The notes beneath the pieces are model-generated. The model ran no database searches and was not told where the DNA came from. It saw only the letters and a program-made list of their open reading frames with translations. A stretch of 64,000 bases of DNA, taken from contig NC_086108.1 in NCBI RefSeq assembly GCF_963921235.1, forward strand, positions 88,786,001 through 88,850,000, in the 5' to 3' direction. The DNA comes from Mobula hypostoma. Lineage: Eukaryota. This document shows, piece after piece, positions 7,289-64,000 of the stretch. Position numbers and translations under genes: made by a program. Every line of letters starts with the position of its first letter. The first letter of the stretch is position 1.

Positions 7289-7445
7289 ATCACAAACAAA
7301 AGAAAATGTGCAGATGCTGGAAATCTGAGCAACACACACAAAATGCTGGAGGGTGAAGGGTTTAGGCCCGAAACGTCAAGTGTACTTTTATCCATAGGTG
7401 CTGCCTGGCCTGCTGAGTTCCTCCAGCATTTTCTGTGTGTTGCTC
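7289..7445. mobile_element. Penelope-derived short module in inverted arrangement, partial hammerhead
   Basis: Left arm GCAACACACACAAAATGCTGGAGG pairs imperfectly with right arm CCTCCAGCATTTTCTGTGTGTTGC. Contains GAAGGG-TTTAGG-CCC-GAAACGTC but lacks CTGA. Confidence 0.7.
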
Positions 7446-8089
7446 ATCTTTTATATGAGTTTTTTTTTAAGATGAGTCATAAGGTTATTTTGTTAACAAA
7501 TAATGGATTATGATAGAGAATTTTTTCCATCCTTTGAAACTAGATAATTTCATCTCAATAAGGAAATTGTTTGATTGAGAAAAGGCTAGAAATGCTCAGA
7601 AATTCCTGCGATGAAGTCTTGCGTTCATCTTGATTTGCATGTTGCTGAGAGTCACGCTTACTTCATTAGACTACAGATTCTAAAACACCAACAAGTGGAA
7701 GAAGCTGCCAACTGAAATGATAGATGTAAATACAATTGTAACATTTAAGAAACATTTGGATAGCTATGTAGGCGAGAGCAGTATGGGGGCCTATGCTCCC
7801 TGTGTAGGTAGATGGGACTAGACAGATGACCTGGCCAGTATGGACTAGATGGACTGAGGTGTCTGTTTCTGTACTGTAGTGCTCTATGACTCTATAACAA
7901 CTTCAAGCAGCGCCTAAGTTTCTAGTTATGTAAAATTAAGCCTTCAAGGTGTATGGAAAGAGAATAGGAATTTGGTATTCAGACAGAGAATCGACCATGG
8001 TGGGTCAAAGTGCCAAATGGTTTATTCCTGGTCCAGATTTTAAGTATCAATGATAAGTGCATCTATAATTGTGTGAAAATAAAAGGAAT

Positions 8090-8457
8090 ATTTTATATTC
8101 TGTCTAGGTAGCATCCAACCTGATGGCATGAACTTTGATTTTTCTAACTTCTGGTAATTTTTTTTCCCACTGCCCCCTCCCTCATCTTCATTTCTCCACT
8201 CTGGCCCTCCTCTTATCTCTTCTCTTCCCTTGCCTATCACCTCCCTCTGGTTCCTCTCCTCCTTCCCCTTCTTTCATGATCACTCCCCTCTCCTATTAGA
8301 TTCCTTCTTCTCCAGCCCCTTACCTTTTCCAGCTATCACCTCCCTGCTTTTACTTTATCTTCCCCGCCCCCCCCACCCAGCTGGCCTCACTTATCACCTC
8401 TAGCTTGTCGGCCTTCCCCATCCCTCCCCTTCCTTTCCAGTCCTGATGAAGCATCTC
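8090..8457 (+). mobile_element. Penelope-like element 3' end (GIY-YIG tail, pyrimidine tract, 5' half of hammerhead), continuing at about 12638-12720
   Basis: Encodes FCLGSIQPDGMNFDFSNF, similar to the 32003-32209 ORF end. Stops at CAGTCCTGATGAAGCATCTC and resumes at TTGGCCCGAAATGTC after the CR1 block. Confidence 0.75.
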
Positions 8458-11400
8458 CATAAGACCATAAGATTTAGGAGCAGAATTAGGCCATTCGGCC
8501 CATCGAATTTGCTCTGCCATTTCATTATGGCTGATTCAATTTTTCTCTCAGCCCCAATCTTCTACCTTCTCCCCGTATCCCTACATGCCCTGACCAATCA
8601 AGAATCTATCAACATCTGACTTAAGTATAAATTAAAGAATTGCCCGCCACAGCTGCCTGTGGCAAAGAATTCTGCAGATTCACCACTCTCTGGCTAAAGA
8701 AATCCCTCTTCATCTCCATTCTAAAAAGACACCCCTTTATACCGAGGCTGTGGCCTTTCACCATTCAACAAATTTCATTGAGGTCACCCCTCATTCTTCT
8801 GAATTCCAGTGAATACAGGCCCAGATCCATCAAATGCTTTTCATATGACAAACCAGTCAACCTTGGAATAATTTTCTAAAATCTCCTCTGAAACTTCCCC
8901 AGTTTCAGCACGTTCTATTTATGATAAGGGGCCCAAAACTGCTCACAAATCTCCAAGTGAGCCCTCACCAGTGCTTTATAAAGTCTCAACATCCTTGTTT
9001 TATATTCTAGTCCTTTTGAAATGAATGCTAACATCACATTTGCATTCCTCTCCACAGATTAAACCTGCAAATTATAGACCATAGACCTTAAAACCATAAA
9101 ACATAGGAGAAAAATTAGGCCATCTGGCCCGTTGAGTCTGCTCTGCCATTCAGTCATGGCTAAACGTTTTTTTATATGTCCTCCTCACCCCAGTTCCCGT
9201 CCTTCTTCCCATAACCTTTGATGCCATATCCAATCAAGAACCTATCAATCTCTGCCTTAAATACACCCAACAATCTGGCCTCCACAGCTGCATGTGGCAA
9301 CAAATTCCACAAATTCTCCACCCTTTGGCTAAAGAAATTTCTCCGCATCTCTGTTTTGAAAGGATGCTTCTCTTTCCTGAGGCTGTGCCCTCTTGTCTGA
9401 GACTCTCCCACCATGGGAAACATCCTTTCCGCATCTACTCTTTCTAGCCCTTTCACCATTCAAAAGGTTTCAATGAGATCCCCCCTTATCCTTCTGAATT
9501 CCAGCGAGTACAGACCCAGAGCCATCAAACGTTCCTCGCATGATAACCCTTTCATTCCTGGAATCATCCTTGTGAACCTCCTCTGGACCATCTTCAATGC
9601 CAGCACATCTTTTCTAAGGTAATGGGCCCAAAACTGTTTATTATACGCAAGGTAAGGCCTCACCAGTGCCTTATAAAGCCTCAGCATCATATCCCTGCTC
9701 TTGTATTCTAGACCTCTTGAAATGAATGCCAACATGGCATTTGCCTTCCTCACCACGAACCCAACCTGCAAGTTAACTTTCAGGGTGTTCGGCACCAGGA
9801 CTCCCAAGTCCCTCTGCATCTCCGATTTCTGGATTTTCTCCCTGTTTAGAAAATAGTCCGCACATTTATTTCTACTACCAAAGTGCATGACCATGCATTT
9901 TCCAACATTGTATTTCATTTGCCATTTTCTTGCCCATTCTCCTAATCTGTCGAAGTCCTGCATTCTACCTGTTTCCTCAACACTACCTGCCCTTTCACCA
10001 ATCTTTATATCATCTGCAAACTTGGCAACAAAGCCATCTATTCCATCATCTAAATCATTTATATACAGCATAAAGAGAAGCGGTCCCAACATCGACCCCT
10101 GCAGAACACCACTAGTCACTGACAACCAACCAGAAAAGGATCTTTTTATTCCCACTTGCTGCCTCCTACCAATCAGCCAATGCTCTAACCATGTTAGTAA
10201 CTTTCCTGTAATACCATGGGCTCTTAACTTGGTAAGCATTCTCATGTGTGGCACCTTGTCAAAGGCCTTCTGAAAATCCATATATACAACATCCACTGTA
10301 TCCCTTTTATCTATGCTACTTGTAATTTCCTCAAAGAGTTCCAACAGGTTTGTCAGGCAGGATTTTCCCTCAAGGAAACCATGCTGACTTTGTACTATCT
10401 TGCCCTGTGTCACCAAGTACTCCATCACCTCATCCTTAACAATTGACTGTAACATCTTCCCAACCACTGAGGTCAGGCTACCCATCACTTTTGAACAGGT
10501 CATACCTCCCTTAGAATAGATCCCAATTATCCAAGAACCTGAAGCCCTGCCCCCTGCATCAGCTTCTCAGCCACACATTTATCTGCCGAATTATCCTGAT
10601 TTTACCCTCACTGGTGTGTGGTACAGGCAACAATCCTGAAATTAGTACCCAGGAGGTCCTGCTTCTCAGCTTTCTACCTAGCTCTCTAAATTCTCTTTTC
10701 TGAACCTCATTGCTTTTCCTTCCTATGTCATTGGTACCAATGTGTACCAAGACATCTGGCTGCTCCCCCTCCCTCTCCAAATTTTGTGGACATGACCTGA
10801 GACATCCCTGACTCTGTCACCTGGGAGGCAACGTACCATCTGGGTGTCCTGTTCACGTCCACTGAATCGCCTGTCCGTTCCCCTCACTATCGAGTCCTCT
10901 ATCACTACCACTCCCTTCTTCCCTCTCCTTCCCTTCTGCACTATGGACCCATGTTCAGTGCCTGTAACCCGGTCGCCATGGTATTTCCTTGGGAGGTCAT
11001 CCACCACAAAAGTACCCAAAGCGGTATACTTGTTTTTGAGGGGAATGGCCATAGGGGTGCTCTGCTCTAATGGCCTCTTTCCAGTTCTCCTGACGGTCCC
11101 CCAGCTACTCGCCTCCTGCAACTTCGGGGTGACTACTTCCCTGTAACTTTGACCAATTAAATCCTCGCTCTCCCGTACAAGCCAAAGGTCATCCAGTTGC
11201 TGCTCCAGATCCCTAACACAGTCTTCAAGGAGCTGCAGCCAGATGCATTTCATGCAGATGTAGTTCTCCAGGAGATTCTGGGTCTCCCAGTTCTCCAACA
11301 TCTGGCACGAAGAACACACCACAGCCATTTTAAATGGCAAAGAGAGGAAGGAAAAAAAAACAAAAAGGGAACCTTATCAGATGCTTTACACAGAGCTGAC

Positions 11401-12635
11401 ACCTCATCTGAGCCAAAGCCTGTCGATTCTACTCTTACTGCTGGCCTACTCCCAACAATGGGCAATCCTCTTATCCATTCTGTAATTTTATTTCATTCTT
11501 AGAGCTCTGTTGACATCGCTGATCTTTTGGGAATCCTGTACAAGCACTCCCAAGTCCTTTGCACGCCAGTTTTTTTTTGTATTTTCTCTCCATTTAGAAA
11601 ATAGTCAACAGTTTCATTTCTTCTACCAAAGTGCATGACCCTACACTTCCTGACACTGTATTCCATCTGCCATTTCTTTGCCCGTTCTCATAATCTGTCT
11701 AAATCCTTCTGTAGCCTCTCTACTTTCTCAAAACTACCCGCCCTTCCACCTATCTTCATATCATCTGCAAGCTTTGCAACAAAGCCTTCAATTCCATCAT
11801 CCAAATCACTGACATATAATGGAAAAAGAATCAACTCAAACCCCTGTGGAACACCACTAATCACCGGCAGGCCAGCCAAAAAAGGCTCCCACTCTTTGCC
11901 TCCTGCCAATACACCATTGCTTTACCCTTGCTAGAATATTTCCTGTAATGCTATGGGCTCGTAGCTTGTTAGGCAGCCTCGTGTGGGACCTTGTCAAAGG
12001 TCTTCTGAAGGTCAAAGTACACAACATCAACCAATTCTCCTTTGTCTATTCTGCTTATTTTTTCAAAGAATTCCTACAGATTTGTCAGGCAAGATTTTCC
12101 ATTGAGGAAATCATGCTGACTAGTCTATTTTATCATGTGCTTCCAAATACCCTGAGACCTCATCCTTAATAATCGACTCCAATGTCTTCCCAACCACGGA
12201 GGTCAGACTAACTAGCCTATAGTTTCCTTTCTTCTGCCTCTCTTCCTTCTTGAAGAGTGGAGTGACATTTGTAATTTTCCAGTCTTCCAGAATCATTCCA
12301 GAATCTAGTGCTTCCTGAAAGATTATTACTTATTCATCCACAGCTCTTCAGCCACCTCTTTCAGAACTCTTGGCTTTATTCCATCTGGTCCAGGTGACTT
12401 ATTCACCTTCAGACCTTTCAGTTTTCAAACAGCCTTCTCTCTAGTTATGGTAACTTCACACACTTCATGCCCCTTGACACCTTGAACTTCTACCATACTG
12501 CTAGTGTCTTTTGCAGGGAAGACTGATGTAAAATACTCATTCAGTTCATCCGCTATTTCATTGTGCCCCATTACTAACTCTCCAGCATTGTTTTCCACTG
12601 GTCTGATATCCACACTCGCCTCTCCTTTACACTTC
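8458..12635 (-). mobile_element. Degenerate CR1 LINE (outer; 8458-9073 and about 11521-12635), interrupted by a second CR1
   Basis: 3' end CATAAGACCATAAGA. RT remnants (DLDDGIEGFVAKLADD). The break AAACCTGCAAATT|...CTTTTGGGAATCC is contiguous in the related copy at about 59795-59825. Confidence 0.8.
9074..11520 (-). mobile_element. Internally deleted CR1 LINE: ORF1 (Zn-finger/leucine zipper plus SGNH-esterase-like) joined to the RT half of ORF2
   Basis: ORFs 10723-11340 (CSSC..CMKC, VIEDSIVR, CLPG), 10559-10780 (VHIGTND), 9460-10503 (DFQKAFDKV, YINDLDD, FADD) and 9172-9459. Endonuclease region absent at the junction near 10490. Confidence 0.85.
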
Positions 12636-13212
12636 TCTTCTTGGCCCGAAATGTCAGCAGTTTACTCTATTCCATAGATGCTGCCTGATCTGTTGAATTT
12701 CACCAGAATTTTGTGTGTGGTTTTGCTCAGGAAAAGTATATTGTTGATTCATAATGCAGTTCCAAATGGAAATTGATTGAGTTACAAGAATCTAACTACA
12801 GTAACACAATTTAGAAACTATGAATCCATCATGATTTGGAAAAAAATGTACAGGGCAGATAGTTTGCCAGGAATATTTTATTATTTAAGAACACAGGGAA
12901 CCAAAGTAAAAAGCAGTTCCAAAGATTAACAACAACTTAACATTATTTTTCAATAGCTAATTGAATCAATTATTAGTTTTCTATTAGAATATTGAATACA
13001 TACATACTGTAACAGAGTTATATTTGGGTAAATGATAGCTATAACAAATGCAGTGGATATCACAATTTGAATGCATACATATTGTGAATGAATAGTAGCA
13101 GTACAACTTTGATACATGTTCATTTTAACTTGCCTGTCCTGTATTAAGTTCCAATACCTCCCGTAGTTCCAGGTAGAAGCAATGGCCTTTGTTATGGATG
13201 TATCGCTCCACT

Positions 13213-18510: not shown

Positions 18511-18716
18511 GTCACACCTATCACCATCCTTTCTCATAAATTATATTGTTTAATGGATGAAAAGCATATTAAAATAAAAAATAGAAATAAACTATTGATG
18601 ATAATCAACTGATTTGTTATGTATAGTAATGATGCATCTTGTATTCTTTTCATACAAAATAATCAGAAATATAAAGTAAATATGAAATCATAACAAAAGC
18701 AACTTCTTGAAAGCAA

Positions 18717-19199
18717 ACATGAGAAAATCTGCAGATGCTGGAAATTCAAGCAACACACATAAAATGCTGGTGGAACGCAGCAGGCCAGACAGCATCAATA
18801 GGAAGAAGCACAGTCGACGCTTCGGGTCGAGACCCTTTGTCAGGACAAATGGGAAAAAGAGATAGTAAGTGATTTGAAAGTGCGAGGTGGAGGGGGAGAC
18901 CCAAAATGATAGGAGAAGACAGGAGGGGGAGGGACGAAACTAAGGGCTAGGAAGTTGATTGGCAAAAGGAATACAAGGCTGGAGAATGGGGAGTATCAAA
19001 TTCCCAGGTCTTAGCTTCGTCCCTCCCCCTCCTGTCTTCTCCCATCATTTCGGGTCTCCCCCTCCCCCTTCCACTTCCAAATCACTTACTACCTCTTTTC
19101 TCCATTAGTCCTGACGAAGGGCCTCGACCCGAAATGTCGACTGTACTTCTTCCTATTGATGCTGCCTGGCCTGCTGCGTTCCACCTGCATTTTGTGTGT
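18717..19199. mobile_element. Penelope-derived inverted-repeat element, one hammerhead motif per arm, 13-bp TSD
   Basis: Arms about 18752-18953 and 19001-19199 are diverged reverse complements. TTCTTGAAAGCAA at 18704-18716 and 19200-19212. Confidence 0.85.
19107..19142 (+). ncRNA. Minimal type I hammerhead ribozyme motif
   Basis: AGTC-CTGACGA-AGGG-CCTCGA-CCC-GAAA-TG-TC-GACT. Core intact; the stem III palindrome is ATGT rather than ACGT. Confidence 0.55.
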
Positions 19200-19227
19200 T
19201 TCTTGAAAGCAACTTTAAATTATTTAA

Positions 19228-29980: not shown

Positions 29981-30432
29981 TAACACGCAAGAAATCCTGG
30001 AGGAACGCTGCAGGTCAATCAACATCTATGGAGAGGAATGAACAGTTGGCGTTTCAGGCCAAGACCTCATCAGGACTGGAATGGAAGGGGAAAGAAGCCA
30101 GAATAGATGGGGGGGTGGGGAGTACAAGCTGTAGGAGTGATCAGGGAAGCCAGATGGACAAAAATAAGTGGGGGGGAGGGGGAATAAACTGAGAAGCTGT
30201 GAGGTGGTAGGTGGAAAATTTAAAGAGCTGGGGAAGAAGGAACCCGATAGAAGAAGAGAGAGAGGACCATGGAAGAGAGGGAAGGAAGATAGAGGGAGGT
30301 GATAGGCATGTGAGGAGATGAGAAGGGGTAAAACGGGAGCCAAAATGGGGAATGGGAAAAGATGTGGGGGGGGGGAGAAACTACTGGAAGTTAGAGAAAT
30401 CAATGTACATGCCGTCAGGTTGGGGGCTACCT
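29981..30432 (-). mobile_element. Penelope-like element 3' end with degenerate hammerhead
   Basis: Minus strand: GSPQPDGMYIDFSNF tail, pyrimidine tract, then AGTC-CTGATGA-GG-TCTTGG-CCT-GAAA-CGCC-AACT. Confidence 0.75.
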
Positions 30433-30946
30433 AAAAATTCCTGTACTGCTTCGTTGACTCAATCTGGAAAACCTGCTCAGTTTGGGGAGGATTTTAGCCT
30501 CCTAATTTTTGACAATTTATAGTACGTAAGACATGAAATTCCAAACATTAAATAATAGGAAGAAAAACAATTATTGCAAGCAACGCACACTCAGCTTCAG
30601 CTTGCCTTTGAATATGTGCAATTGTTCGTTAGGTAGGTTTATTGTTTCCCTTTAACTGATCAGTGTAGATTGAAAAACCCTGGACTCTACAGACTGCTTA
30701 AAACACCTCTTATCTGTCTGGAAAGTTTGGCTCCTTGAAATAGGGTTACTTTCCTGGAAACGGTTCAGAAGTTTAAGACTAATTAAGGTAGTGAACAGCC
30801 AATCAAATAAATAGCTCGTGTGCAACACTTTTATACATTCAACATGTGCAAACAATTTGAAGGCAAAATTATACAGTATTATATTATCCTCCAGTAACAA
30901 CATATTAGAACTATTAATGTATCATGAATAACACTGGATAATTTAC

Positions 30947-31061
30947 CTTAATTATATCTGCTGTCGATCTTTCTGTTGCTTTCAGTTTTTTCAGTAACAG
31001 TTGTTCATTAGATGAAATTTGGGCTTCTTGGTTTTCAAGAGCTTTTATTTCTTCTTCGAGC
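30947..31061 (-). CDS. PALMD: PALMD coiled-coil exon (RLEEEIKALENQEAQISSNEQLLLKKLKATERSTADIIK)
   Basis: TTTACAG| and AAG|GTAAAT, 115 bp, phase 2 to 0. Similar to mammalian RLEKEIQDLEKAELQISTKEEAILKKLKSIERTTEDIIR. Not in the ORF track. Confidence 0.93.
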
Positions 31062-31944
31062 CTGTAAATAACACTTAGCTTTAGAGAGTGGGAATTCTAC
31101 TCAGATGTACAATCTGAATGCAGTTTCAATTTCAACGTTTAAGAGAAACTTGGATGGGAGAGGGATGGAGGGCAACGGTCTGGGTGCAGGACAATGGAAA
31201 TTGGCAGTTTAAATGGTTCAGCATCAACTAGCTGAGCCGAATGGCCTGTTTCTGTGCTGTAGCTTTCGATGATTATGTAAATATCACATAGGACATGCCT
31301 TTAAGGTGAGAAGGGAAAGTTTAAAGGAGATGTGAAGGGCACGTTACTTTTTCTTTTACACAGTTATTGGTAAGTGTTCGGGGTGGGTTACTGGGGTACT
31401 GGTGGAAGCAGATATGATAGTGGCATTTCAGAGGCTGTTAGACACATGAATATGCAGGGAATGGCAGAATATGGGTTATGTACAGGCTGAAAAGTTTTTA
31501 TCTAATTCGGGTTCTTCTGGGCTGAAAAGCCTGTTTCTGTGCTGTTCTGTTCTCTTGTTCTATGCTGGTGATAGTTTGTACATTTGCTGCATTGTAACCT
31601 GCTGTTAAATGTATCTGCTTTCATCTGGCACATATCGAGAGAGGAAGGTCAAATTTACACTCCATAGAAATTTGCTGTGAACTCAGTTCCCAGAACAGAA
31701 GTTTTTACATGTTAAATCTATTAACTGGATAACAAATTTGTCATCTTTACCTTTGTAGTCTAATAAGCATGTTGGGGATATTAATGAACGGGCTATTGTA
31801 TTGTCTCTATTGTATTTATCCTCTGTAGTCTATATCATATGTGATGATACTTCCAGCGCTTGCATATTATGTCATACATATACTACACTGCAATGTGTTT
31901 ATTACCATTTAATCTTCACAATCATAAATATCCCAAAGCAAAGG

Positions 31945-33005
31945 TAAAGACAGGGAAAAAGGGATGGGAAATGGAGAAGGGGGTTGGTGTTGGGGGGCAT
32001 TACTAGAACTTTGAGAAATTGATGTACATGCCATCAGGTTGGAGGCTACCCAAACAGAACATAAGGTGTTGTTCCTCCAACTTAAGTGTGGCCTCAGCAC
32101 GACAGTGGAGGAGGCCATGGATGGACATATCGGAATGGGAATGTGAATTGGAATTAAAATGGGTGGCCACTGGGAGATCCGCTTGTTCTGGTGGACGGAG
32201 TGTAGACACTTGGTGAAGCAGTATCTCAATCTACAGTTGGGTCTCACTGATGTACAGAAGGCCACACCAGGTGCACCAAGGACAGTAAGTGACTGCAACA
32301 GACTCACAGGTGAAGTGTCACCTCATCTGGAAGGACTGTTAGGGTCCTGGATGGTAGTGAGGGAGGAACTGTGGGGGCAGGTGTAGCACTTGTTCCACTT
32401 ACAAGGATAAGTGCTAGGAGGGGGAATCAGTGCGGAGGGATGAATGTACAAGGGAGTTGCATAGGGAGTAATTCCAGTGGAAAGCAGAAAATGGGGCGGG
32501 AGGGGTGGTGTGATTCCATTGGAGGCGGTGGTAATTTCGGAGATTTATGTGCTGGATGTGGAGGCTGGTGGGGTGGTAGGTGAGGACAAGAGGAACCCTA
32601 TCCCTGATAGGGTGGCAGGAGGATGGGTTAAGAGCAGACGTGTGTAAAATGGAAGAGATGCGGTTGAGGGCAGTGTTGATGGTGGAGGAAGGGAAGCCCC
32701 TTTCTTTGAAAAAAGAGGACATCTCCTTTGGTCTAGAGTGAAAAGCCTCATCCTGAGTGCAGATGCGGTGCAGACAGGAATTGAGAGAAGAGGATGATGT
32801 TTTAACGAGTAGCAGGTGGGACGAGGTATAGTCCAGGTAGCTGTGAGAGTCCGTGGGTTTGTAATAGATATCGGTGGATAAGCTGTTTCCAGAGATAGAG
32901 ACAGTGAGATCAAGAGAGGGGAGGGAAGTGTAGGAAATGGACCTGGTGAATTTGAGGGCAGGGTGGAAGTTGGAGGCAGAGAGGATGAAGTTGACGAGTT
33001 CAGCA
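31945..33005 (-). mobile_element. Penelope-like element fragment (RT C-terminus plus GIY-YIG endonuclease), frameshifted
   Basis: ORF pieces MSSFFKERGFPSSTI..RVPLVLTYHP and DLPVATHFNS..EQHLMFCLGSLQPDGMYINFS. Confidence 0.82.
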
Positions 33006-40282: not shown

Positions 40283-41339
40283 TGAATTAAAGTGCTAAGA
40301 ATCAAGTCAATTCATTTATGATTGGAAAATCATCAGTCTGAAATGTTTACCAGTTCTTTCTTCAATTGCATTGCAGCATTTTCAATTTTTATTAACTGGT
40401 ATTTGCCTCTGGTCACTCCAAAGTCAATGTTGTTTTAAATCAAGAAGGACTGGAAATGACTCTGAGGCAATTGATTTTTGAACAGTCATTGAGCTCAGCA
40501 GAATGAGCCATTTAAACAATTAGAAAATGCTGATTTCATCACACGTTCTTTCAAATGACCCTCAACCACTTCACAGAGAAATGTTACTAGTGATCTATAA
40601 AAATGCTTGCCTTCTGAATTGTGCTGAATCTAATGCAATAGGTAATGCATTTTTAACAGAGCTCTACTAGTCGACTTTACGGACAAGCTGCTCAGAATGG
40701 GGGAAATTTAGTGAGATTGGAAACCTTGCTGAAAGATAGTTACTATTTGCTACTTCTAGGACAGTTACAGAGGAGTTCTTTTGGAATACATTTGTAGAAA
40801 GTAACCCTTGGGTGCTATGGTTCCAATCTCATTAATATGGATGTAGAGAGAGGCAAGTAGGCTCCCCCCATGTATGTTACAGAAGTATTCCACTGGCTGC
40901 AAAATGTGCAAAGTCAATACAGTATACTTCATTTTTTCAAGTAAACATACTTCAGCGTATGAATTCTAAAAGTTGACCTCAACTGAACCTGAAATGCTTC
41001 AATAAATTGTCTTTCACTGCTTTTCTGTGGTTTAGTATCATTGAATGATGTTAGCGGTTCACTTCATAGTATTAACACAGGAGATTCTGCTGGAAATCCA
41101 GAGTAGCACACATAGAATGCTGGAGGAACTCAGCAGGTCGGGCAACATCTATGGAGGGGAATAATGAGCTGATATTTCAGGTCAAGACACCTCATAGCTT
41201 TAATGTTTCAGCTACTAATGGGGAATTTTGATATGTAGTTTTATTGATAATTACAATTACTCCTAATCTAGTGCGTTGCAGTAGAATTAGGGGAGGTTAT
41301 AAGCATATAAGAGAGAGTAGGACGTAAGTAGGGAGTGGA

Positions 41340-44286: not shown

Positions 44287-44380
44287 GTCCTGACGAAGGG
44301 TCTTGGTCCAAAACATTGGTTCTTTATTCTTCTCCATAGATGCTGCCTGATCTGCTGAGTTCCTCCAGATTTTCTGTGTG
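44287..44380 (+). mobile_element. Penelope-derived short module with degenerate hammerhead
   Basis: GTCCTGACGAAGGGTCTTGGTCCAAAACATTG followed by the ATAGATGCTGCCTGATCTGCTGAGTTCCTCCAG body. Confidence 0.7.
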
Positions 44381-45892
44381 ACTCTACACACATAGGCTGC
44401 CCCAATACTTCCTCCCTCTCTCCACTGACTTTCAGTAGCACCTGTCACTTGTGTGCTTAGACCAAGTTTAGCTCAGGATTGCTACAGAAGGGAGCTCTTT
44501 TAATCAGTTGCGTCATGCAGTCCTGCAGGGGCAAATTACTTCATAAATCTATTCTCTGATCAGAGCAGATATAGTCTATCTACAGAAAATGGTGCAAGCA
44601 TCTTGAGAGAGAGAGAGAGAGAAAAAAATCACATATAAGCATTCAAACATTGTAAATATTCCAAATCATATATAAAATTTGTTAAGAAAAAATTGTTTTC
44701 AAACGGAAAAGGTATGTGTTTGATGAGTGTGATAACTGAAGTATGCACTTAATTTTAACCAGGCAGTGAGTTGGCTGCACTCATTCCAAACATGTCATCA
44801 GGAAAGCTATTTGAATGACTGCATTACTTGATATATTTGTGCAGCTACTAGAATTGGTTGTACAGTACTTGTCAATGTTTAAATATAGGAGCAGAATTTG
44901 ACATATTTTCCATATTAATCATTTTAATTTCAGTGCTTCCTGTTATTGAGAAAGTCACAAAAGAAATGGAAAGTAGGAACTTTATATTAATGGAAAGCCA
45001 GTTAGTTGAAACACCCTCTTCAGTGTGATTCATATTTATCTCACAATGGACATAACATTCTGTCAATGGGTTAAAGGAACATTTTAACCTTCAAATATGC
45101 TATCAAACAGAACATGGTCTAATTTTATCCTTGGAAGACCAAAACACATTCTGCAATACTTCTCAAATAATAAACTTCATTACTCAAGGCAACTTACTTC
45201 TTTTTAATTTGCAGATTCAGGACCCTAATGCCATTTAATATTGATAGCAACATGTGTTATTTTATCCCTTTTTGTAATAGCAACCTTCAGTAACTTTCAG
45301 CCTTGTATAACTAAGCTGCAAAGGAATTCAAACTATCTTCTGTAGCAGCTACGGCTGAATAATCCTCTGCTTCCTGAAAACACATCCAGAGAAATGAAGC
45401 AACAAGAGGCTTGCAATCTAGGACAAGGTTAGATATCCTGCAGCTTGCTGCGACCACTGGGCAGGAGTGCTGCATCTAAACATACTCATTATCATCACTT
45501 TTTACCGTTAACTCACGCTTGGAAATCATACATTTTCTAGCACATGGATTAAACTAATAGGGTAAATGTAAAGCATTCAATCATTCTTTGCTATACTGTT
45601 CCATTGTGCAGTGTACAATACATTTGAAAGGAATTAATAGCATGCTATCTGTAGTATTAGAGCCACTGGAGAGTACTCCCTATTAAAGATGAGCAGAGTC
45701 CATGACAGGGTAGAGAATAGATGGACTATGCCTGACTGATGGGATAACTTTACATTCCTTGAGCAAGATTGCTTTTTATCAGCCTTGTGCATATATGGGT
45801 TATGTTGCTAAGCTTTATGTTTTAAAACAAAGAAATAACTGTCAGATTGAACCACTCTGGTCCATGAAATTTAATACATCTATTTTCATTTT

Positions 45893-46775: not shown

Positions 46776-47047
46776 TATTTTACTTCCAGAGAAACTAAGT
46801 ATTCTAAATAAAGGCAAAACTATATGTTAAGCTTGAACCATCATTGTGGAATGGCCCAATTTTGCTAATGCCATCAGAAGTAATATTGGGTAGAGGGTAA
46901 AATCAGCACACGACTCCCCAGCCCGCTATATAAAAGGAATATGGGCGGAAGGGCCTGTACTGAGCAGTCTTGTTAAATGTTCTACATTGAAGTGGAATTT
47001 CCGTTTTAGTAATAGAATTACAAGCTGCACTCATAAATTTAGCTTAC

Positions 47048-47178
47048 CGGAGAATCTTTTGTTCCATTTGCTTGGATTGGTGCTGGTCTTCCAGATGCTG
47101 CTTTCTTATTGCCTCTTGTTCTTGAGGAGTGATGTTGGCCACTCCTTCCAGAAGCCATTGTTCTCTCAAAGTCTTTGA
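47048..47178 (-). CDS. PALMD: PALMD exon (SKTLREQWLLEGVAN...QMEQKILR)
   Basis: AACAG| and CCG|GTAAGC, 131 bp, phase 0 to 2. Paralemmin motif LRE.WLL.G. Confidence 0.93.
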
Positions 47179-48572: not shown

Positions 48573-51535
48573 ATAGAAACATAGAAACATAGAAAATAGG
48601 TGCAGGGGTAGGCCATTCGGCCCTTCGAGCCTGCACCGCCATTTATTATGATCATGGCTGATCATCCAACTCAGAACCCCGCCCCAGCCTTCCCTCCATA
48701 CCCCCTGACCCCTGTAGCCACAAGGGCCATATCTAACTTCCTCTTAAACACAGCCAATGAACCGGCCTCAACAGTTTGCTGTGGCAGAGAATTCCACAGA
48801 TTCACCACTCTCTGTGTGAAGAAGTTTTTCCTAATCTCGGTCCTAAAAGGCTTCCCCTCTATCCTCAAACTGTGACCCCTCGTTCTGGACCTCCCCAACA
48901 TCGGGAACAATCTTCCCGCATCTAGCCTGTCCAATCCCTTTAGGATCTTATACGTTTCAATCAGATCCCCCCTCAATCTTCTAAATTCCAACGAGTACAA
49001 GCCCAGTTCATCCAGTCTTTCTTCATATGAAAGACCTGCCATCCCAGGAATCAATCTGGTGAACCTTCTTTGTACTCCCTCTATGGCAAAGATGTCTTTC
49101 CTCAGATTAGGGGACCAAAACTGCACACAATACTCCGGGTGTGGTCTCACCAAGGCCTTGTACAACTGCAGTAGTACCTCCCTGCTCCTGTACTCGAATC
49201 CTCTCGCTATAAATGCCAGCATACCGTTCGCCTTTTTCACCGCCTGCTGTACCTGCATGCCCACTTTCAATGACTGGTGTATAATGACACCCAGGTCTCG
49301 TTGCACCTCCCCTTTTCCTAATCGGCCACCATTCAGATAATAATCTGTTTTCCTATTTTTGCCACCAAAGTGGATAACTTCACATTTATCCACATTAAAT
49401 TGCATCTGCCATGAGTTTGCCCACTCACCCAACCTATCCAAGTCACCCTGCATCCTCTTAGCATCCTCCTCACTGCTAACACTGCCACCCAGCTTCGTGT
49501 CATCCGCAAACTTGGAGATGCTGCATTTAATTCCCTCATCCAAGTCATTAATATATATTGTAAACAACTGGGGTCCCAGCACTGAGCCTTGCGGTACCCC
49601 ACTAGTCACCGCCTGCCATTCTGAAAAGGTCCCGTTTATTCCCACTCTTTGCTTCCTGTCTGCTAACCAATTCTCCACCCACACCAATACCTTACCCCCA
49701 ATATCGTGTGCTTTAAGTTTGCACACTAATCTCCTGTGTGGGACCTTGTCAAAAGCCTTTTGAAAATCCAAATATACCACATCCACTGGTTCTCCCCTAT
49801 CCACTCTACTAGTTACATCCTCAAAAAATTCTATGAGATTCGTCAGACATGATTTTCCTTTCACAAATCCATGCTGACTTTGTCCGATCATTTCACCGCT
49901 TTCCAAATGTGCTGTTATCACATCCTTGATAACTGACTCCAGCAGTTTCCCCACCACCGACGTTAGGCTAACCGGCCTATAATTCCCCGGTTTCTCTCTC
50001 CCTCCTTTTTTAAAAAGTGGGGTTACATTAGCCACCCTCCAATCCTCAGGAACTAGTCCAGAATCTAACGAGTTTTGAAAAATTATCACTAATGCATCCA
50101 CTATTTCTTGGGCTACTTCCTTAAGCACTCTGAGATGCAGACCATCTGGCCCTGGGGATTTATCTGCCTTCAATCCCTTCAATTTACCTAACACCACTTC
50201 CCTACTAACATGTATTTCACTCAGTTCCTCCATCTCACTGGACCCTCTGTCCCTTACTATTTCTGGAAGATTATTTATGTCCTCCTTAGTGAAGACAGAA
50301 CCAAAGTAATTATTCAATTGGTCTGCCATGTCCTTGCTCCCCATAATCAATTCACCTGTTTCTGTCTGCAGGGGACCTACATTTGTCTTTATCAGTCTTT
50401 TCCTTTTTACATATCTATAAAAGCTTTTACAGTCCGTTTTTATGTTCTCTGCCAGTTTTCTCTCATAATCTTTTTTCCCCTTCCTAATTAAGCCCTTTGT
50501 CCTCCTCTGCTGAACTCTGAATTTCTCCCAGTCCTCAGGTGAGCCACTTTCTCTGGCTAATTTGTATGCTACTTCTTTGGAATTGATACTATCCCTAATT
50601 TCTCTTGTCAGCCACGGGTGCACTACCTTCCTTGATTTATTCTTTTGCCAAACTGGGATGAACAATTGTTGTAGTTCATCCATGCAACCTTTAAATGCCT
50701 GCCATTGCATATCCACCGTCAATCCTTTAAGTGTCATTTGCCAGTCTATCTTAGCTAATTCACGACTCATACCTTCAAAGTTACCCCTCTTTAAGTTCAG
50801 AACCTTTGTTTCTGAATTAACTATGTCACTCTCCATGTTAATGAAGAATTCCACCATATTATGGTCACTCTTACCCAAGGGGCCTCTCACGACAAGATCG
50901 CTAATTAACCCTTCCTCATTGCTCAAAACCCAGTCCAGAATAGCCTGCTCTCTAGTCGGTTCCTCGACATGTTGGTTCAAAAAACCATCCCACATACATT
51001 CCAAGAAATCCTCTTCCTCAGCACCTTTACCAATTTGGTTCACCCAGTCTACATGTAGATTGAAGTCACCCATTATAACTGCTGTTCCTTTATTGCACAC
51101 ATTTCTAATTTCCTGTTTAATACCATCTCCGACCTCACTACTACTGTTAGGTGGCCTGTACACAACTCCCACCAGCGTCTTCTGCCCCTTAGTGTTACGC
51201 AGCTCTACCCATATCGATTCCACATCTTCCCGGCTTATGTCCTTCCTTTCTATTGCGTTAATCTCTTTTTTAACCAGCAACGCCACCCCACCTCCCCTTC
51301 CTTCATGTCTATCCCTCCTGAATATTGAATATCCCTGAATGTTGAGCTCCCATCCCTGGTCACCCTGGAGCCATGTCTCTGTGATCCCAACTATATCATA
51401 ATCATTAATAACAATCTGCACTTTCAATTCATCCACCTTATTACGAATGCTCCTTGCATTGACACATAAAGCCTTCAGGCGCTCTTTTACAACTCTCTTA
51501 GCCCTTTTTAATGCTTGCCCTGGATTTGTCGGCCT
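48573..51535 (-). mobile_element. Young CR1 LINE, 5'-truncated just upstream of the endonuclease domain
   Basis: (ATAGAAAC)n 3' repeat, 3' UTR and uninterrupted ORF2; no ORF1. The 5' boundary is approximate. Confidence 0.93.
48671..51436 (-). CDS. CR1 ORF2: APE endonuclease plus reverse transcriptase, 921 aa, no stops
   Basis: [50 protein letters not shown]. The frame stays open upstream (LCVNARSIRNK). Confidence 0.95.
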   Translation of the reverse strand: MDELKVQIVINDYDIVGITETWLQGDQGWELNIQGYSIFRRDRHEGRGGGVALLVKKEINAIERKDISREDVESIWVELRNTKGQKTLVGVVYRPPNSSSEVGDGIKQEIRNVCNKGTAVIMGDFNLHVDWVNQIGKGAEEEDFLECMWDGFLNQHVEEPTREQAILDWVLSNEEGLISDLVVRGPLGKSDHNMVEFFINMESDIVNSETKVLNLKRGNFEGMSRELAKIDWQMTLKGLTVDMQWQAFKGCMDELQQLFIPVWQKNKSRKVVHPWLTREIRDSINSKEVAYKLARESGSPEDWEKFRVQQRRTKGLIRKGKKDYERKLAENIKTDCKSFYRYVKRKRLIKTNVGPLQTETGELIMGSKDMADQLNNYFGSVFTKEDINNLPEIVRDRGSSEMEELSEIHVSREVVLGKLKGLKADKSPGPDGLHLRVLKEVAQEIVDALVIIFQNSLDSGLVPEDWRVANVTPLFKKGGREKPGNYRPVSLTSVVGKLLESVIKDVITAHLESGEMIGQSQHGFVKGKSCLTNLIEFFEDVTSRVDRGEPVDVVYLDFQKAFDKVPHRRLVCKLKAHDIGGKVLVWVENWLADRKQRVGINGTFSEWQAVTSGVPQGSVLGPQLFTIYINDLDEGIKCSISKFADDTKLGGSVSSEEDAKRMQGDLDRLGEWANSWQMQFNVDKCEVIHFGGKNRKTDYYLNGGRLGKGEVQRDLGVIIHQSLKVGMQVQQAVKKANGMLAFIARGFEYRSREVLLQLYKALVRPHPEYCVQFWSPNLRKDIFAIEGVQRRFTRLIPGMAGLSYEERLDELGLYSLEFRRLRGDLIETYKILKGLDRLDAGRLFPMLGRSRTRGHSLRIEGKPFRTEIRKNFFTQRVVNLWNSLPQQTVEAGSLAVFKRKLDMALVATGVRGYGGKAGAGF

Positions 51536-51824
51536 GTTTTGGTTTGTTTATCAACGTAACCATCTTGATTGTTTTTGAAGCTATCATTAGTGATGCTGTA
51601 TTATTCAGGAGGTGGGAGTCAGAGATTCTTGGTGTCTTACATGTTAAGAGATACGAAGAGAGCTGTCAGAACACACGCAGGGCAGGTTTCCATCGCAACG
51701 CTGCTCTTGTGGTCACATATCGATGTTGGATGCAGCTCAAATCCATTTATAGTGCACATAAGTTCAGTTTGCAAAGGAAACTGCTCAGTCACAGGTTTTG
51801 TAGTGGGGGATTACAGACGAATAC

Positions 51825-52810: not shown

Positions 52811-54295
52811 CAGGACAGGGTTTTGGTCTGAAATGTCAGCAACTTCCTTCCTTGTTCCAATGTTGCTCAACCCTTGGTGTTCCTCCAGCAGATTGTGGTC
52901 TGCTCCAAAAGTAGGGGTTGGCAACTGTCCCCTCACACCTACCGTGTCATTAAATATGATCCTGTCCAATGTGCCTCAGACCTCAGCTCTTACAGTGTGC
53001 CAATTCCACATAGTTCAGAATTCCTCAGCCTTCCAAAAATGTAGGATATCTACCTCCTCTCTAAATACCCCCAGTGACCTAACATACGTAGCACACTGGG
53101 GTAGAGAATTCCAGAGGTTCACTGGCGTCTGTGTGAAATAATTCCTACAAATTTCAGTTTTAAATGACTCCTCTTTTGCTCTTTTATCTTACAAGTACAT
53201 CTTCTCATTCAAGTCACTCCCACTAGTGGAAATGTTTCAGTACCAACCTAGTCATGCTTCTGATATTCATGTCCCCTTATTCAGAATCAGATTTAATATC
53301 ACCAGTAAACGTTGTGATATTTGTCATGTTTGTAACAGCAGTACATAATAATGGAGAAAAAAACACTGCACTTTACAGTAAGTGTATACATACATATATG
53401 TATTATGATTACATAATATTTCTCTATTTCTAAACTTCTGTTCCACTTGCAACAACAGCCAGTAAAGGCTCTTTGTAGCCAATACAACCTTTCTGAAATT
53501 TAGTTTCAGTTGTAAAGAATTGGATGACTACTTAAAGAATAAAATGTTTAAGATAAAACCTTCACACATAAATATATTTTATCATTCTAATAGTTAGAAA
53601 ACACCTGAATGACATTGAAAACATCATCAAGCATTTTTACCTCATAAGGGAAACACTGTATATTAGTAAAGAGATCTTAGCATAGTGTTTGGTAAAGTGA
53701 GTTAATTACCTTGACCATGAGAGCACCACACCACAGGAATACAGACTTCTTCATTTCATAAAACTAATTTTATGCCTTTAACAGTTATGCATTTAATAAG
53801 GGTACTTATCTGTAAAATGACAGCAAAGGAAATTTGTGCATGGAAATTTAATTTTCTTCACACAGTTTTATCCATTCATTAGTCACTCATTTAATTGGAT
53901 ATGACTGGACTAAATTTGCCTGAAATCTGCAGTAATGAATTTCCATATCAGTAAAGACCTAACTGCAAATAAAACTAAAATTTTAAATACCGTGCATAAT
54001 TGGTCCATACGTGGCTAATTGTTCTCTTTAGAGAGTTTGAATCTAGAACCGGATCTCTAAAAGATATAAAAGGCTGTTTTGGAGAATACGTAAATAAAAC
54101 AATTAAAAGGACTGTACCAGGTTGCAGGACGCTACATTAAGAGGAGATGGCTCTGTTTCCTGTGGAGAAGCAACGACTCCAAGGGGGTATAATTGATGTA
54201 TGGTAGGATAAAGTACTTCCTTTGTGCTAGTTTATCCTTTATTAATCCTACTTACACTCCCATGTACGGAAATATCAACACTTATGATCTGGGCC

Positions 54296-54525
54296 ACACA
54301 CAGAAAATGCTGGAGGAACTCAGTAGACCAGGCAGCATCTATGGAAAAGAGTAAACAGTCAACATTTTGGGCCGAGACTCTTCTTCAGGACTGATGAAGG
54401 GTCTCGGTCCAAAATGTCGATTGCTTACTCTTTTCCATAGATGCTGCCTGGCCTGCTGAGTTTCCCTGGCGTTTTCCATGTGTTGCTTTGGATTTCCGGT
54501 GTCTGCAGATTTTCTTGTGTTTGTG
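54296..54525. mobile_element. Penelope-derived palindrome with two back-to-back degenerate hammerheads
   Basis: Centre TTCAG-GA-CTGATG at about 54385-54396. Arms of about 90 bp are imperfect reverse complements. Confidence 0.8.
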
Positions 54526-55363
54526 GAACATTTATGACCTATTCTTATTTAGAGTAAAAAAAAAATCACTATTTTGGAAATAGGTTAGATTAGAGGGACA
54601 GTTTTATAAGACTACATTTCTAGTGGGTATCCTCTGCTGCCTTTCTGTCCAAGTACCCGTCCAAAAGTCTTCTAAATGCCACTGCTACCAGTTTGTTCCA
54701 AATATTCACCACACTCTGAGGAAAATGCCCCTCAGGTCTTCTTTAAATTTCTCCCCTCTCACCTTAAATTTATGCCGTCCAGTTCTAGATTCCCCCACCT
54801 TGGGGAAAAGTTTCTATCTCCTATCTATACTGCTCATTGTTGTAAACCTGTATAAAGTCATTCAACAGTCTCCTATCTTCCTGAGACAATAAACCCAGTT
54901 TATTCAAACAATTCTTATAACTACAGCTCTTCATTGCAGGCACATAGTGCTGAACCCCTTCTGCATTCTCTCTGTTGCTACCATATCCTTCCTGTGGTAT
55001 TGTAAAAGAACTGAATGGAACATGTACGGTCTAACCAATGTTTTCTTACAGTTGTAACATTACATCCCTACTTTTATTCTCAATGCCTCTGAAGGTAAGC
55101 ATTCCCAATGTCTTTTTCACTATCCTATCCACTTCTTCTCTATATATCCTTGGAGAATTTGACTCCCCAAACTACATTACCTCACAATTGTACCATTGAA
55201 CCATTGAATTGTCTGGATTATATTCCATCTGCCATTACAGATGATCTATGTAACACTGTATCTTTAAAGAACCATTTTCCTTATCTCTGAGTTCAGTAAC
55301 TTCTGTGTCATCTGCAAGTTTACTAATCAGTCTGCTACATTCTCATCCAAATCATTTAATTAA

Positions 55364-55910
55364 TACTCAGTGGCCACTTTATCAGGTGACTCTTGTACCT
55401 AAAAAAGTGGCCACTGAGTGTATGTCCATGGTCTTCTGCTGCTGTAGCCCAACCACTTCAAAGTTCAACGTGTTGTACATTCAGAGATGCTCTTCTGTTC
55501 TCTACTGTTGAGTTACTGTCACCTTCATGTCAGCTTGAACCAGCCTGATCATTTTCCTCTGACCTCTCTCATTAACAAGGCATTTTTGTCCACAGAACTG
55601 CCACTCCCTGGATGTTTGTTTGTTTCTCACACCATTCTCTGTAACCTCCAGAGACTGTTGTGCACGGAAATCCCAGGAGATCAACAGTTCCTGAGATACC
55701 CCAATCTCCTCCCCCCACCCCCCATTCTAGCACTAACAACCATTCCACAATCAAAGTCACTTAGATCATATTTCTTCCCCATTCTGATTTTTGGTCTGAA
55801 CCATGTCTAGATGCCGTTATGCATTGAATTGCTGCCACATGATTGGCCGATTAGATATTTGCATTAACAAGCAAGTATACAGGTATACCTAATAAAGTGG
55901 TCACTGAGTG
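55364..55910 (-). mobile_element. Non-autonomous Tc1/mariner DNA transposon
   Basis: TIRs ACTCAGTGGCCACTTTAT / ATAAAGTGGTCACTGAGTG followed by TA. Frameshifted HTH transposase remnant (DLLGFPCTTVSGGYREWCEKQ; LVNERGQRKMIRLVQAD). Confidence 0.85.
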
Positions 55911-56494: not shown

Positions 56495-57326
56495 CAAACC
56501 TACACTTCACCCTCCCATCTTTGACCATCCTAGTATCCTATTCCTGTTTATTCAACAACTTTCTGACTACCGATGAAAAGCTCCTTGGCCAATAGTTTCC
56601 AGGCTTATATTGATGGCCCTTTATGTACAAAGGACAATGTAGGCTATCCACCAGTCTTCCAGAATCTCACCTATGGTTAACAAATATGCAAAAATTTCCA
56701 ACACAAAGAAAAATGGGCGGCTTTGGGGAGTGGAAGGGAAGGATTAGATTGATCTTAGATTAGGTTAGAAGGTCAGAAGAACATTGTGGGCTGAAGAACC
56801 TGTACTGTGTTCTTTCTTCCCTGAGCATCCTGGGCATTTATCCATAATGCCATAAGATATGGATACGATAGGGTCTTTCAAGTGACTCCTAGTCAGCTAC
56901 ATGGAGCTCAGAAAAATAGAGGGCTATGGGTAACACTAGGTAATTTCTAAGGTGAGGACATGTTCGGCCTGGTAGGCAAGCCACACGGTAGGCTTATTCA
57001 GAAAGTCAGAAGGCATGGGATCCAGGGAAGTTTGGCCAGGTGGATTCAGAATTGGCTTGCCTGCAGAAGGCAGAGGGTGGTGGTGGAGGGAGTACATTCA
57101 GATTGGAGGATTGTGACTAGTGGTGTCCCACAAGGATCTGTTCTGGGACCTCTACTTTTTGTGATTTTTATTAACGACCTGGATGTGGGGGTTGAAGGGT
57201 GGGTTGGCAAGTTTGCAGACGACACAAAGGTTGGTGATGTTGCAGATAGTGTAGAGGAATGTCAAAGATTGCAGAGAGACATTGATAGGATGCAGAAGTG
57301 GGCTGAGAAGTGGCCGGAGAAGTGTG

Positions 57327-57362
57327 AGTCCTGACGAAGGGTCTCGGCCTGAAACGTCGACT
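57327..57362 (+). ncRNA. Minimal type I hammerhead ribozyme motif (best copy)
   Basis: Stem I AGTC/GACT, core CTGACGA, stem II AGG/CCT, GAAA, palindromic ACGT stem III, GTC triplet. Predicted cut after 57358. Confidence 0.7.
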
Positions 57363-57470
57363 GCACCTCTTCCTAGAGATGCTGCCTGGCCTACTGCGTT
57401 CACCAGCAACTTTGATGTGTGTTGCTTGAATTTCCAGCATCTGCAGAATTCCTGTTGTTTGCGTTTTTAA
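57329..57470 (+). mobile_element. 142-bp Penelope-derived insertion with 9-bp TSD
   Basis: AAGTGTGAG at 57320-57328 and 57471-57479. Confidence 0.88.
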
Positions 57471-58247
57471 AAGTGTGAGGTGGTACACTTTGGAAGGACA
57501 AACTCCAAGGCAGAGTACAAAGTAAATGGCAGGATACTTGGTAGTGTGGAGGAGCAGAGGGATCTCGGGGTACATGTCCACAGATTCCTGAAAGTTGCCT
57601 CACAGGTGGATAGGGTAGTTAAGAAAGCTTATGGGGTGTTAGCTTTCATAAGTCGAGGGATAGAGTTTAAGAGTCACGATGTAATGATGCAGCTCTATAA
57701 AACTCTGGTTAGGCCACACTTGGAGTATTGTGTCCAGTTCTGGTCACCTCACTATAGGAAGGATGTGGAAGCATTGGAAAGGGTACAGAGGAGATTTACC
57801 AGGATGCTGCCTGGTTTAGAAAGTGTGCAATATGATCAGAGATTAAGGGAGCTAGGGCATTACTCTTTGGAGAGAAGGAGGATGAGAGGAGACATGATAG
57901 AGGTGTACAAGATAATAAGAGGAATAGATAGAGTGGATAGCCAGCACTTCTTCCCCAGGGCACCACTGCTCAGTACAAGAGGGCATGGCTTTAAGGTAAG
58001 GGGTGGGAAGTTCAAGGGGGACGTTAGAGGAAGGTTTTTTACTCAGAGAGTGGTTGGTGCGTGGAATGCACTGCCTGAGGCAGTGGTGGAGGCAGATACA
58101 CTAGTGAAGTTTAAGAGACTACTGGACAGGTATATGGAGGAATCTAAGGTGGGGGCTTATATGGGAGGCAGGGTTTGAGGGTCGGCACAACATTGTGGGC
58201 CGAAGGGCCTGTATTGTGCTGTAGGTTTTCTATGTTTTTATGTCTAT

Positions 58248-61138: not shown

Positions 61139-61363
61139 GCAACACACATAAAAGTTGCTGGTGAACGCAGCAGGCCAGGCAGCATCTCTAGGAAGAGGTG
61201 CAGTCAACGTTTCAGGTCTGAATATACCTGATGATCAGGTATATTCAGACCTGAATCGTCGACTGCACCTCTTCCTAGAGATGATGCCTGGCCTGCTGCG
61301 TTCACCAGCAACTTTTATGTGTGTTGCTTGAATTTCCAGCATCTGCAGAATTCCTGTTGTTTG
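61139..61363. mobile_element. Penelope-derived near-perfect palindrome with 14-bp TSD
   Basis: 93-bp arms at 61139-61231 and 61235-61327, 3 mismatches by eye. AATTTTTTATATAC at 61125-61138 and 61364-61377. Confidence 0.9.
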
Positions 61364-61419
61364 AATTTTTTATATACTTCTGGTTTTTCGCCCAATCTTT
61401 CATGTTTTTCATGCAGAGA

Positions 61420-63599: not shown

Positions 63600-64000
63600 C
63601 AACACTCACAACACGCTGGAGGAACTCAGCAGGTTGGGCAGCATCCGTGGAAAAGATCGGTCGACGTTTCGGGCTGGAACCCTTTGTCAGGGACTGTAGA
63701 GGGAAGGGGCAGAGGCCCTATAAAGAAGGTGGGGGGAGAGTGGGAAGGAGAAGGCTGGTAGGTTCCAGGTGAAAAACCAGTAAGGGGAAAGATAAAGGGG
63801 TGAGGGAGGGGAGTCAGGGAGGTGATAGGCAGGAAAGGTGAAGAAAGAATAGGGGAAAACACAATGGGTCGTAGAAGGAGGCGGAACCATGAGGGAGGTG
63901 ATAGGCAGCTGGGGGAGGGGGCAGAGTGACATACGAATAGTGGAAGGGAGGGGGAGGGAATTACCGGAAGTAGGAGAATTCTATGTTCATACCAAGGGGC
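63600..64000 (-). mobile_element. Penelope-like element 3' end with hammerhead variant; continues beyond the window
   Basis: Minus strand: GMNIEFSYF tail, pyrimidine tract, then GTCC-CTGACAA-AGGG-TTCCAG-CCC-GAAA-CGTC-GAC. Confidence 0.8.

Follow-up and report, generated by a model that had tools for sequence, protein, structure and literature searches.

Minimal hammerhead ribozymes (min-HHRs) have been described in the terminal repeats (pLTRs) of metazoan Penelope-like elements (PLEs), including the fish elements Xena, Poseidon and Neptune (PMC4209133). Single minimal hammerheads did not cleave in vitro, dimers cleaved weakly, and in D. virilis the end of an intron meets helix I (PMC4209133). 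In the Poseidon element PAc of Anolis carolinensis, the hammerhead needs protein to cleave and is dispensable for insertion, as hammerhead mutants still insert; in vitro, reverse transcription begins at two internal sites that define the tail, and the main substrate is uncut RNA (PMC11167929). The origin of PLE repeats, inverted ends and tails, and the role of the hammerhead, are open questions (PMC8557442, PMC11167929).

Here we analyzed a 64-kb stretch of the Mobula hypostoma genome (64,000 nt, hereafter the window), for which a preliminary description had reported a mobile mini-element of about 140 bp, flanked by target-site duplications and built around a hammerhead. Our best explanation, to which we give a probability of about 0.85, is that this insert is a 5'-truncated terminal repeat left by a Penelope-like retrotransposon of very high abundance, of which only the tail end is present, and not a separate mobile element, and that the hammerhead rides in it as cargo. 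A minimal hammerhead in a truncated Penelope copy is an already known kind of motif and element. Coordinates are collected in Table 1.

Table 1. Features of the insert, of its surroundings and of related copies in the window (RT, reverse transcriptase).
Feature	Position	Strand	Evidence or remark
Left target-site duplication AAGTGTGAG	57320..57328	+	Terminal AG = stem I bases 1-2; one copy in CR1 relatives
5'-truncated terminal repeat (pLTR), Neptune-type Penelope-like element	57329..57470	+	98.6% to L109 repeat positions 1-140
Predicted minimal type I hammerhead motif	57327..57362	+	Sequence pattern; stem II register from family alignment
Stem I, 4 bp	AGTC 57327-30 / GACT 57359-62	+	Motif read-out
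CUGANGA box	CTGACGA 57331-37	+	Motif read-out
Unpaired base	A57338	+	Family register
Stem II	57339-42 / 57347-50	+	Family register
GAAA box	57351-54	+	Motif read-out
Loopless palindromic stem III	ACGT 57354-57	+	Motif read-out
CGTC, with C57358 as putative UH cleavage site	57355-58	+	Predicted cut after 57358
Conserved segment to short 3' end (~repeat position 97-103)	57363..57424	+	3'-end classes; putative first RT start site, by analogy with PMC11167929
Penelope 'tail', 35-40 bp, to long 3' end (~134-140)	57425..57466	+	Putative second RT start site
Right target-site duplication AAGTGTGAG	57471..57479	+	Matches left copy
Host CR1-type LINE fragment (RT region) interrupted by insert	56961..58200	+	Pfam RVT_1 E 2.5e-11; 95-97% to relatives
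Paralemmin-family gene exons	21734-22894, 30947-31072, 47041-47181	-	Pfam PF03285, E 6e-44; CaaX-like C-terminus
APE-RT (CR1-type) LINE, 958-codon stop-free frame, young near-complete ORF2	48671-51547	-	Open reading frame
Older inverted pair, short fragments	7293..7444	.	Similarity
Older copy: GIY-YIG C-terminus 8083-8154, 3' UTR, hammerhead first half near 8440	8083..12719	+	Similarity
Inverted pair of truncated copies, one tailed, one tailless	18710..19207	.	Similarity
Older interrupted Penelope-like copy: RT/GIY-YIG pieces 33004-32006 and 30431-30386, 3' UTR, decayed hammerhead 30077	29983..33005	-	tblastn 58%, E 1e-98
Decayed solo fragment	41083..41195	-	Similarity
Decayed solo fragment starting at hammerhead edge	44287..44381	+	Similarity
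Inverted pair joined at hammerhead 5' edge	54293..54523	.	Similarity
Young inverted pair truncated inside core, without CUGANGA, 14-bp target duplication	61139..61370	.	Similarity
Older copy: GIY-YIG coding end, 3' UTR, decayed hammerhead 63691	63601..63994	-	Similarity

The claim of a duplication-flanked insertion was confirmed. The 9-bp target duplication is found on both sides, and the closest relatives of the host LINE across this site show it empty, holding one uninterrupted AAGTGTGAG, so that the insert proper covers 57329-57470 (142 bp). The start formerly placed at AGTC holds for the motif but not for the insert, its AG being donated by the duplication: this is a 2-nt microhomology shared by the target duplication and stem I. 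The cut predicted after 57358 is correctly placed. The insertion event is recent, as had been proposed, since the host LINE is 95-97% identical to its relatives and the nearest sister copies of the insert are 99-100% identical to it over 134-140 bases. We take this LINE to be a CR1, following the preliminary description. Just 5' of the insertion site, around 57313-57314, it lacks about 15 bp that relatives have, a difference that could date from the insertion itself or from an unconnected event.

The motif reported in the insert, a minimal type I hammerhead with a palindromic stem III, is complete as to its boxes, stem I and loopless stem III. Stem II is present as well, but its register is better with A57338 unpaired and G57339 against T57350. 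At the position equivalent to 57350, older copies have C as often as T, and the A-T pair is kept in 43% of them against 76% for the G pair; the G57339/T57350 register is preferred because its pair is kept more often. In this family register, the energy of stems I and II is -6.0 kcal/mol, versus -4.6 in the register first proposed. Stem I pairs are kept in 93-100% of young copies, and 93-98% of copies have the unpaired A (repeat position 12). The G10.1-C11.1 pair, a highly conserved feature that stands outside the minimal-hammerhead descriptor, is absent: T is found at 11.1 in the window copy and in 130 of 149 young copies, giving G-U, or A-U if shifted by one, while G-C is commonest in older copies. 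Two-sided stem changes were few (7 from C-G to T-A and 9 from G-C to A-T, in 170-189 rows) and occurred at CpG-prone positions, none of them being convincing as a compensatory change; the stems are nearly invariant among the subfamilies here.

The bare core pattern was found 6 times in the window for 6.35 expected, i.e. at chance level. A scan with Rfam models did not recover the hammerhead: at E≤1, the window gave 20 matches, none of them to a hammerhead family. The reality of the motif thus rests on the whole fold, on the family and on the published minimal descriptor. Upon folding of the monomer (57327-57363), the minimum-energy fold was a single hairpin and not a hammerhead, a result that is uninformative on the dimer. 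Dimer cleavage of PLE hammerheads has reportedly been studied by Luense et al.

A Penelope origin had been proposed for the insert, and it matches the terminal repeat of a full-length, ORF-bearing element. In one such copy, L109, direct repeats 3512 bp apart surround an uninterrupted reading frame (1015 aa after the start Met), the first in-frame ATG lying at repeat position 171; the window's 144 bp are 98.6% and 97.8% identical to the two repeats. Upstream walking found two direct hammerhead repeats about 3.5-3.7 kb apart in 9 of 10 extended loci, and among the best 29 other genome copies, about 21 continue into a shared pyrimidine-rich 3' UTR, several of them reaching the GIY-YIG/RT ORF. The L109 protein has an RT, DKG and YIDD motifs, a CX4CxxC linker (CKRNKCYTC at residue 882) and, C-terminally, a GIY-YIG with two internal cysteines (GIY-CxxC-YIG). 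In a sister copy, Pfam matches to RVT_1 (E 1.5e-6) and GIY-YIG (E 0.016) were both below curated cut-offs, weak but consistent, and a PDB search with the 1015-aa protein gave no real match. The parent is an endonuclease-positive (EN+) PLE, with a single ORF between direct terminal repeats. Its linker and GIY-YIG motifs point to the Neptune/Nematis type, without settling between the two, since a CX2-5CxxC linker is absent in Penelope/Poseidon (PMC8557442). The label Poseidon was dropped because this linker zinc finger was found. The full-length copies of one subfamily (L103, L104, L105, L077, L085, L091 and L099) have in common an internal duplication, some 210 bp long, within the N-terminal, proline-rich portion of the ORF.

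All 11 relatives previously listed in the window show similarity to the insert, and a profile search found 17 family pieces. Three of the copies, at 8440, 30077 and 63691, had been said to follow directly a GIY-YIG C-terminus; the order is the same, but some 290-350 bp of 3' UTR lie in between. Both core boxes occur at the family spacing at 19111, 30052 and 57331 only, and the palindromic stem III is also intact only at 57331. The piece at 12639 is probably the remainder of the copy at 8083-8440, apparently split by a later insertion. Rfam microRNA-like matches at 18.9-19.1 kb and 54.3 kb correspond to inverted Penelope pairs. Between the arms of the young inverted pair lies a 33-bp palindromic spacer (61217-61249), where no match to the element reference was found. 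Another short inverted repeat, at 55359-55425, has a weak Rfam microRNA-hairpin score; our searches gave no link between it and the Penelope family, and it is possibly the end of a small DNA transposon.

The very high copy number that had been claimed holds: the exact 34-nt hammerhead form occurs 36,060 times genome-wide (17,985 forward, 18,075 reverse; reversed control 0). In a content-blind sample of 1,364,000 bp, for which the window and its neighbouring stretches were combined with twelve blocks of 100 kb, we counted 277 profile matches of all ages and 69 young 3' ends (at least 88% identity), the latter extrapolating to about 175,000 genome-wide. The young copies, which measure between 35 bp and 2.4 kb, make up a ladder of 5' truncations and share 3' ends of two classes (~97-103 and ~134-140, about 37 nt apart). 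Their 5' ends (69) range from +100 to -2341 relative to stem I, and only 15 of the 69 carry ORF sequence. Target duplications are 8-14 bp long. We found 17 inverted-pair insertions, all with exactly one tailed arm, and 16 of them with a target duplication of at least 9 bp. For solo short copies, such a duplication, abutting the hammerhead edge, was found in only 6 of 11, compared with 2 of 60 random sites. The two 3' classes and the one-tailed inverted pairs are published PLE anatomy, and the tail may be explained, by analogy, by the pair of internal sites at which the RT of the Anolis element starts in vitro (PMC11167929).

The ribozyme module had been thought to move as a non-autonomous family of its own, in which 140-nt copies would be transcribed and re-inserted in trans. 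The size class is distinct in that the hammerhead edge accounts for 24 of the 69 young 5' ends, every stub holds the presumed RT start region, and non-autonomous elements derived from pLTRs are published (10.64898/2026.07.22.740005; Chlamys families, PMC8557442). However, the stretch belongs, as terminal repeat, to an element with an ORF, and copies of either length class have haplotypes in common. Comparison of 149 young copies (38 short and 99 long, 12 intermediate being left out) showed that short copies had another short copy as nearest neighbour in 23% of cases, versus 27% in shuffles, and in 21% versus 48% when unbiased blocks alone were used. Common haplotypes occur in both classes, and no column had a variant present in at least 25% of short and less than 8% of long copies. 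In 2 of 8 polymorphic columns the two length classes differed (nominal p 0.03-0.04, uncorrected), to which we give little weight as the long set was partly picked as best hits. Moreover, 5' ends are variable, albeit with a strong mode at -1..+2, the upstream flanks of solo stubs share no sequence, and no shared short first exon was found upstream of them. Ladder and shared haplotypes thus speak against a separate lineage; the mini-element appears largely refuted by the haplotype test, and we consider it improbable.

Even harder to reconcile with the data is a retrozyme, in which tandem hammerhead units would self-cleave and the monomers circularise and retrotranspose. Retrozymes derive from PLE terminal repeats and are present in the one chondrichthyan sampled (10.64898/2026.07.22.740005). 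Outside the 69-copy sample, two inverted or deleted copies begin at or beside the cut (L074 at +32, the partner of L252 at +33). Against this, the window copy is solo, and its hammerhead is minimal, not canonical. A same-strand neighbour within 1.2 kb was found for only 12 of 214 hammerhead-spanning hits, at irregular spacing; no head-to-tail array was seen in the 1.364 Mb, and no run of three among the 214 hits. Finally, copy ends ignore the cut site: none of the 69 young 5' ends lies at +28..+38, around the cut, where about 3-4 were expected from the neighbouring density. We therefore retain a truncated terminal repeat, and regard a retrozyme as very unlikely.

What the hammerhead does in these copies can be approached through its conservation. 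The core is intact in 41 of 58 young copies, versus 23 of 138 old ones; in the latter, CpG core positions decay, and G12 is kept in 62%. This decay, together with the absence of young copies beginning at the predicted cut, is why we see the ribozyme as cargo. Conservation of the core was compared with that of the rest of the family, as the preliminary description had proposed. In the 138 old copies, mean conservation is 0.89 for the 10 non-CpG core columns and 0.78 for 25 columns downstream (p 0.002), but a conserved block at 51-61 reaches 0.86, a value close to that of the core, and no excess was found among the 58 young copies (p 0.43). As the core columns are conserved across subfamilies as well as the best downstream block, the pattern suggests constraint on source elements, and none on inserted copies. 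In an older subfamily, C replaces the core A6 in 13 of 137 old copies (for example, in the unbiased blocks, C36 92804 minus, C21 79439 plus and C2 30602 plus).

The insert is probably located in an upstream intron of a paralemmin-family gene, antisense to it. We presume this gene to be palmdelphin. An intact core upstream of these exons might evoke a working ribozyme kept to act on a host transcript. Yet the copy is opposite in strand to the gene and has no partner to form a dimer, its intactness is what its youth predicts from the above proportions, and single minimal hammerheads are left uncleaved in vitro (PMC4209133); such a function is thus hardly conceivable. Solo and antisense to the surrounding gene, the stub at 57329-57470, which has neither a promoter partner nor a second hammerhead, is probably inert.

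The accumulation of 5' ends at the hammerhead edge deserves closer attention. Among the 69 young copies, the 24 mentioned above begin at -5..+6 (12 nt), versus 16 in the flanking 72 nt (p 3e-11), and solo copies alone give 11 versus 7 (p 6e-6). Inside a continuous ladder, the ends have a strong mode at -1..+2 but are spread over some 12 nt, and a shoulder reaches -20. Of the copies reaching +1, 23/70 stop by -5 (0.047 per nt at +1..-5); this set combines the young sample with 30 consecutive exact matches from one contig, both arms of pairs being counted. Further upstream, the stop rate is 0.016 per nt to -20, 0.004 to -45, and 0.0006-0.001 beyond, so that the rate at the edge is about 50 times the upstream truncation rate. 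Older copies also begin often at -5..+6 (34/82), an observation that was set aside because the different 3' UTRs of older subfamilies break alignments there anyway.

We favour, at about even odds, run-off by an RT at the end of an RNA that has its start at the hammerhead edge. The competing view, that the edge is a barrier or a joining hot spot acting on copies of the same truncated origin, is a serious if somewhat doubtful possibility, and several candidates were considered: a folded or protein-bound hammerhead, a spliceosome at an acceptor-like site, or short inverted repeats favouring joining. In 14 copies the upstream repeat reaches the hammerhead, and 12 of these run at least 168 nt past it, 2 stopping at the edge; many templates thus include sequence upstream of the edge, which cannot be an absolute end, and these second-pass copies count against run-off and for a barrier. 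An RT would nevertheless run into the fold at its 3' side, and no excess of ends was seen there. Joining is suggested by several inverted junctions that overlap at a 2-4-nt palindromic microhomology, but solo copies without an inverted partner pile up as strongly (the 11 versus 7 above). A barrier or joining hot spot is also favoured by two copies, L091 and L096, in which the edge is followed at once by the ORF, with a few untemplated A's in between, their junctions (oriented) lying near 2356-2364 and 2533-2536. Together with L074 and L093, they are internally deleted copies in which the 3' repeat begins at -1, 0, -21 or -44 and adjoins sequence from the 5' part of the ORF; they resemble products of template jumping once a short initial stretch had been copied.

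As to splicing, every subfamily seen has, just before the hammerhead, a pyrimidine tract with YAG at its end; in copies with AG-TCC, the preceding base is a pyrimidine in 93/102 and the tract is pyrimidine-rich in 72/102. This sequence also fits the initiator consensus. By analogy with D. virilis (PMC4209133), it would fit a splice acceptor, and hence a spliceosome acting as the barrier. However, no donor-to-acceptor deletion was found in 48 short alignments or in 4 deletion junctions, i.e. no spliced copies, and a GT donor was not found in the two deletions ending at the edge (L091, L096).

On either view of the edge, the stub was likely made by the reverse transcriptase and GIY-YIG endonuclease of the element itself. 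The element protein would nick the target, and reverse transcription would start at either of two internal sites, 65-105 nt past the cut site, uncut RNA serving as a template that is copied backwards. When started in the 5' repeat of an edge-initiated transcript, synthesis would run off after 100-140 nt, leaving a stub. Tentatively, the stubs might then be the genomic record of a 'strong-stop'-like Penelope intermediate, formed on an RNA starting at the hammerhead's first bases, from which the RT runs off after 100-140 nt. There would be one RT start per target strand, both in the 5' repeat, and the product would either integrate as a stub or hairpin, or jump elsewhere on the template. If this is true, the start of the transcript and the two RT starts could be read to the base from copies numbering in the tens of thousands, which would also show that the hammerhead travels uncut at the extreme 5' end of the RNA. 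The ribozyme and the element themselves are ordinary, but the anatomy of the copies could matter: the abundance of 3' ends (the ~175,000 above), the intact full-length copies, the edge pile-up and the long/short asymmetry make questions of Penelope replication testable.

In the literature consulted, we found no description of this family in a shark or ray, nor of a pile-up at the hammerhead edge; published species tables and alignments may cover them, and the family may already be described. With the min-HHRs of metazoan PLEs (PMC4209133), the Mobula motif shares the CUGANGA and GAAA boxes, a stem I of 4-5 bp, the unpaired base before stem II, a palindromic stem III without a loop and its location within the terminal repeat, as well as the prevalence of single motifs, there attributed to truncated PLEs. 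It differs by its stem II, of 3-5 bp versus 6-8 in schistosome and fly min-HHRs, and, in the youngest subfamily, by G-U in place of the conserved G10.1-C11.1 pair (the 130/149 copies above; PMC4209133). As for copy number, the 36,060 exact 34-mers compare with about 4,000 copies in coelacanth and about 9,000 in Xenopus (PMC4209133), by differing counting methods. The non-LTR retrozymes (PMC7229834; 10.64898/2026.07.22.740005) are likewise short, non-coding, hammerhead-bearing and related to PLE repeats, but they form head-to-tail arrays with a hammerhead per unit, often canonical, and are expressed as circles, whereas the Mobula stub is solo and has no lineage of its own.

The parent most resembles the Neptune/Nematis EN+ PLEs, which have the same single ORF encoding an RT and, C-terminally, a GIY-YIG, the same DKG motif, CX2-5CxxC linker and two GIY-YIG cysteines, and also partial tandems, an inverted 5'-truncated partner, a 30-40-bp tail at one end and heavy 5' truncation (PMC8557442). 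The pile-up at the hammerhead edge is a feature of the Mobula copies that the consulted part of that paper does not describe for EN+ PLEs. PAc of A. carolinensis, a Poseidon element, has the same two tail-separated 3'-end classes, located 3' of the hammerhead, and its copies derive from uncut RNA (PMC11167929). Its ORF starts inside stem II (PMC11167929), instead of at repeat position 171 as in the Mobula element, and the linker zinc finger present in the Mobula element is absent in PAc by clade. Finally, the start sites of PAc show no strand difference in vitro (PMC11167929), whereas in Mobula each of the 17 inverted pairs combines one long and one short end.
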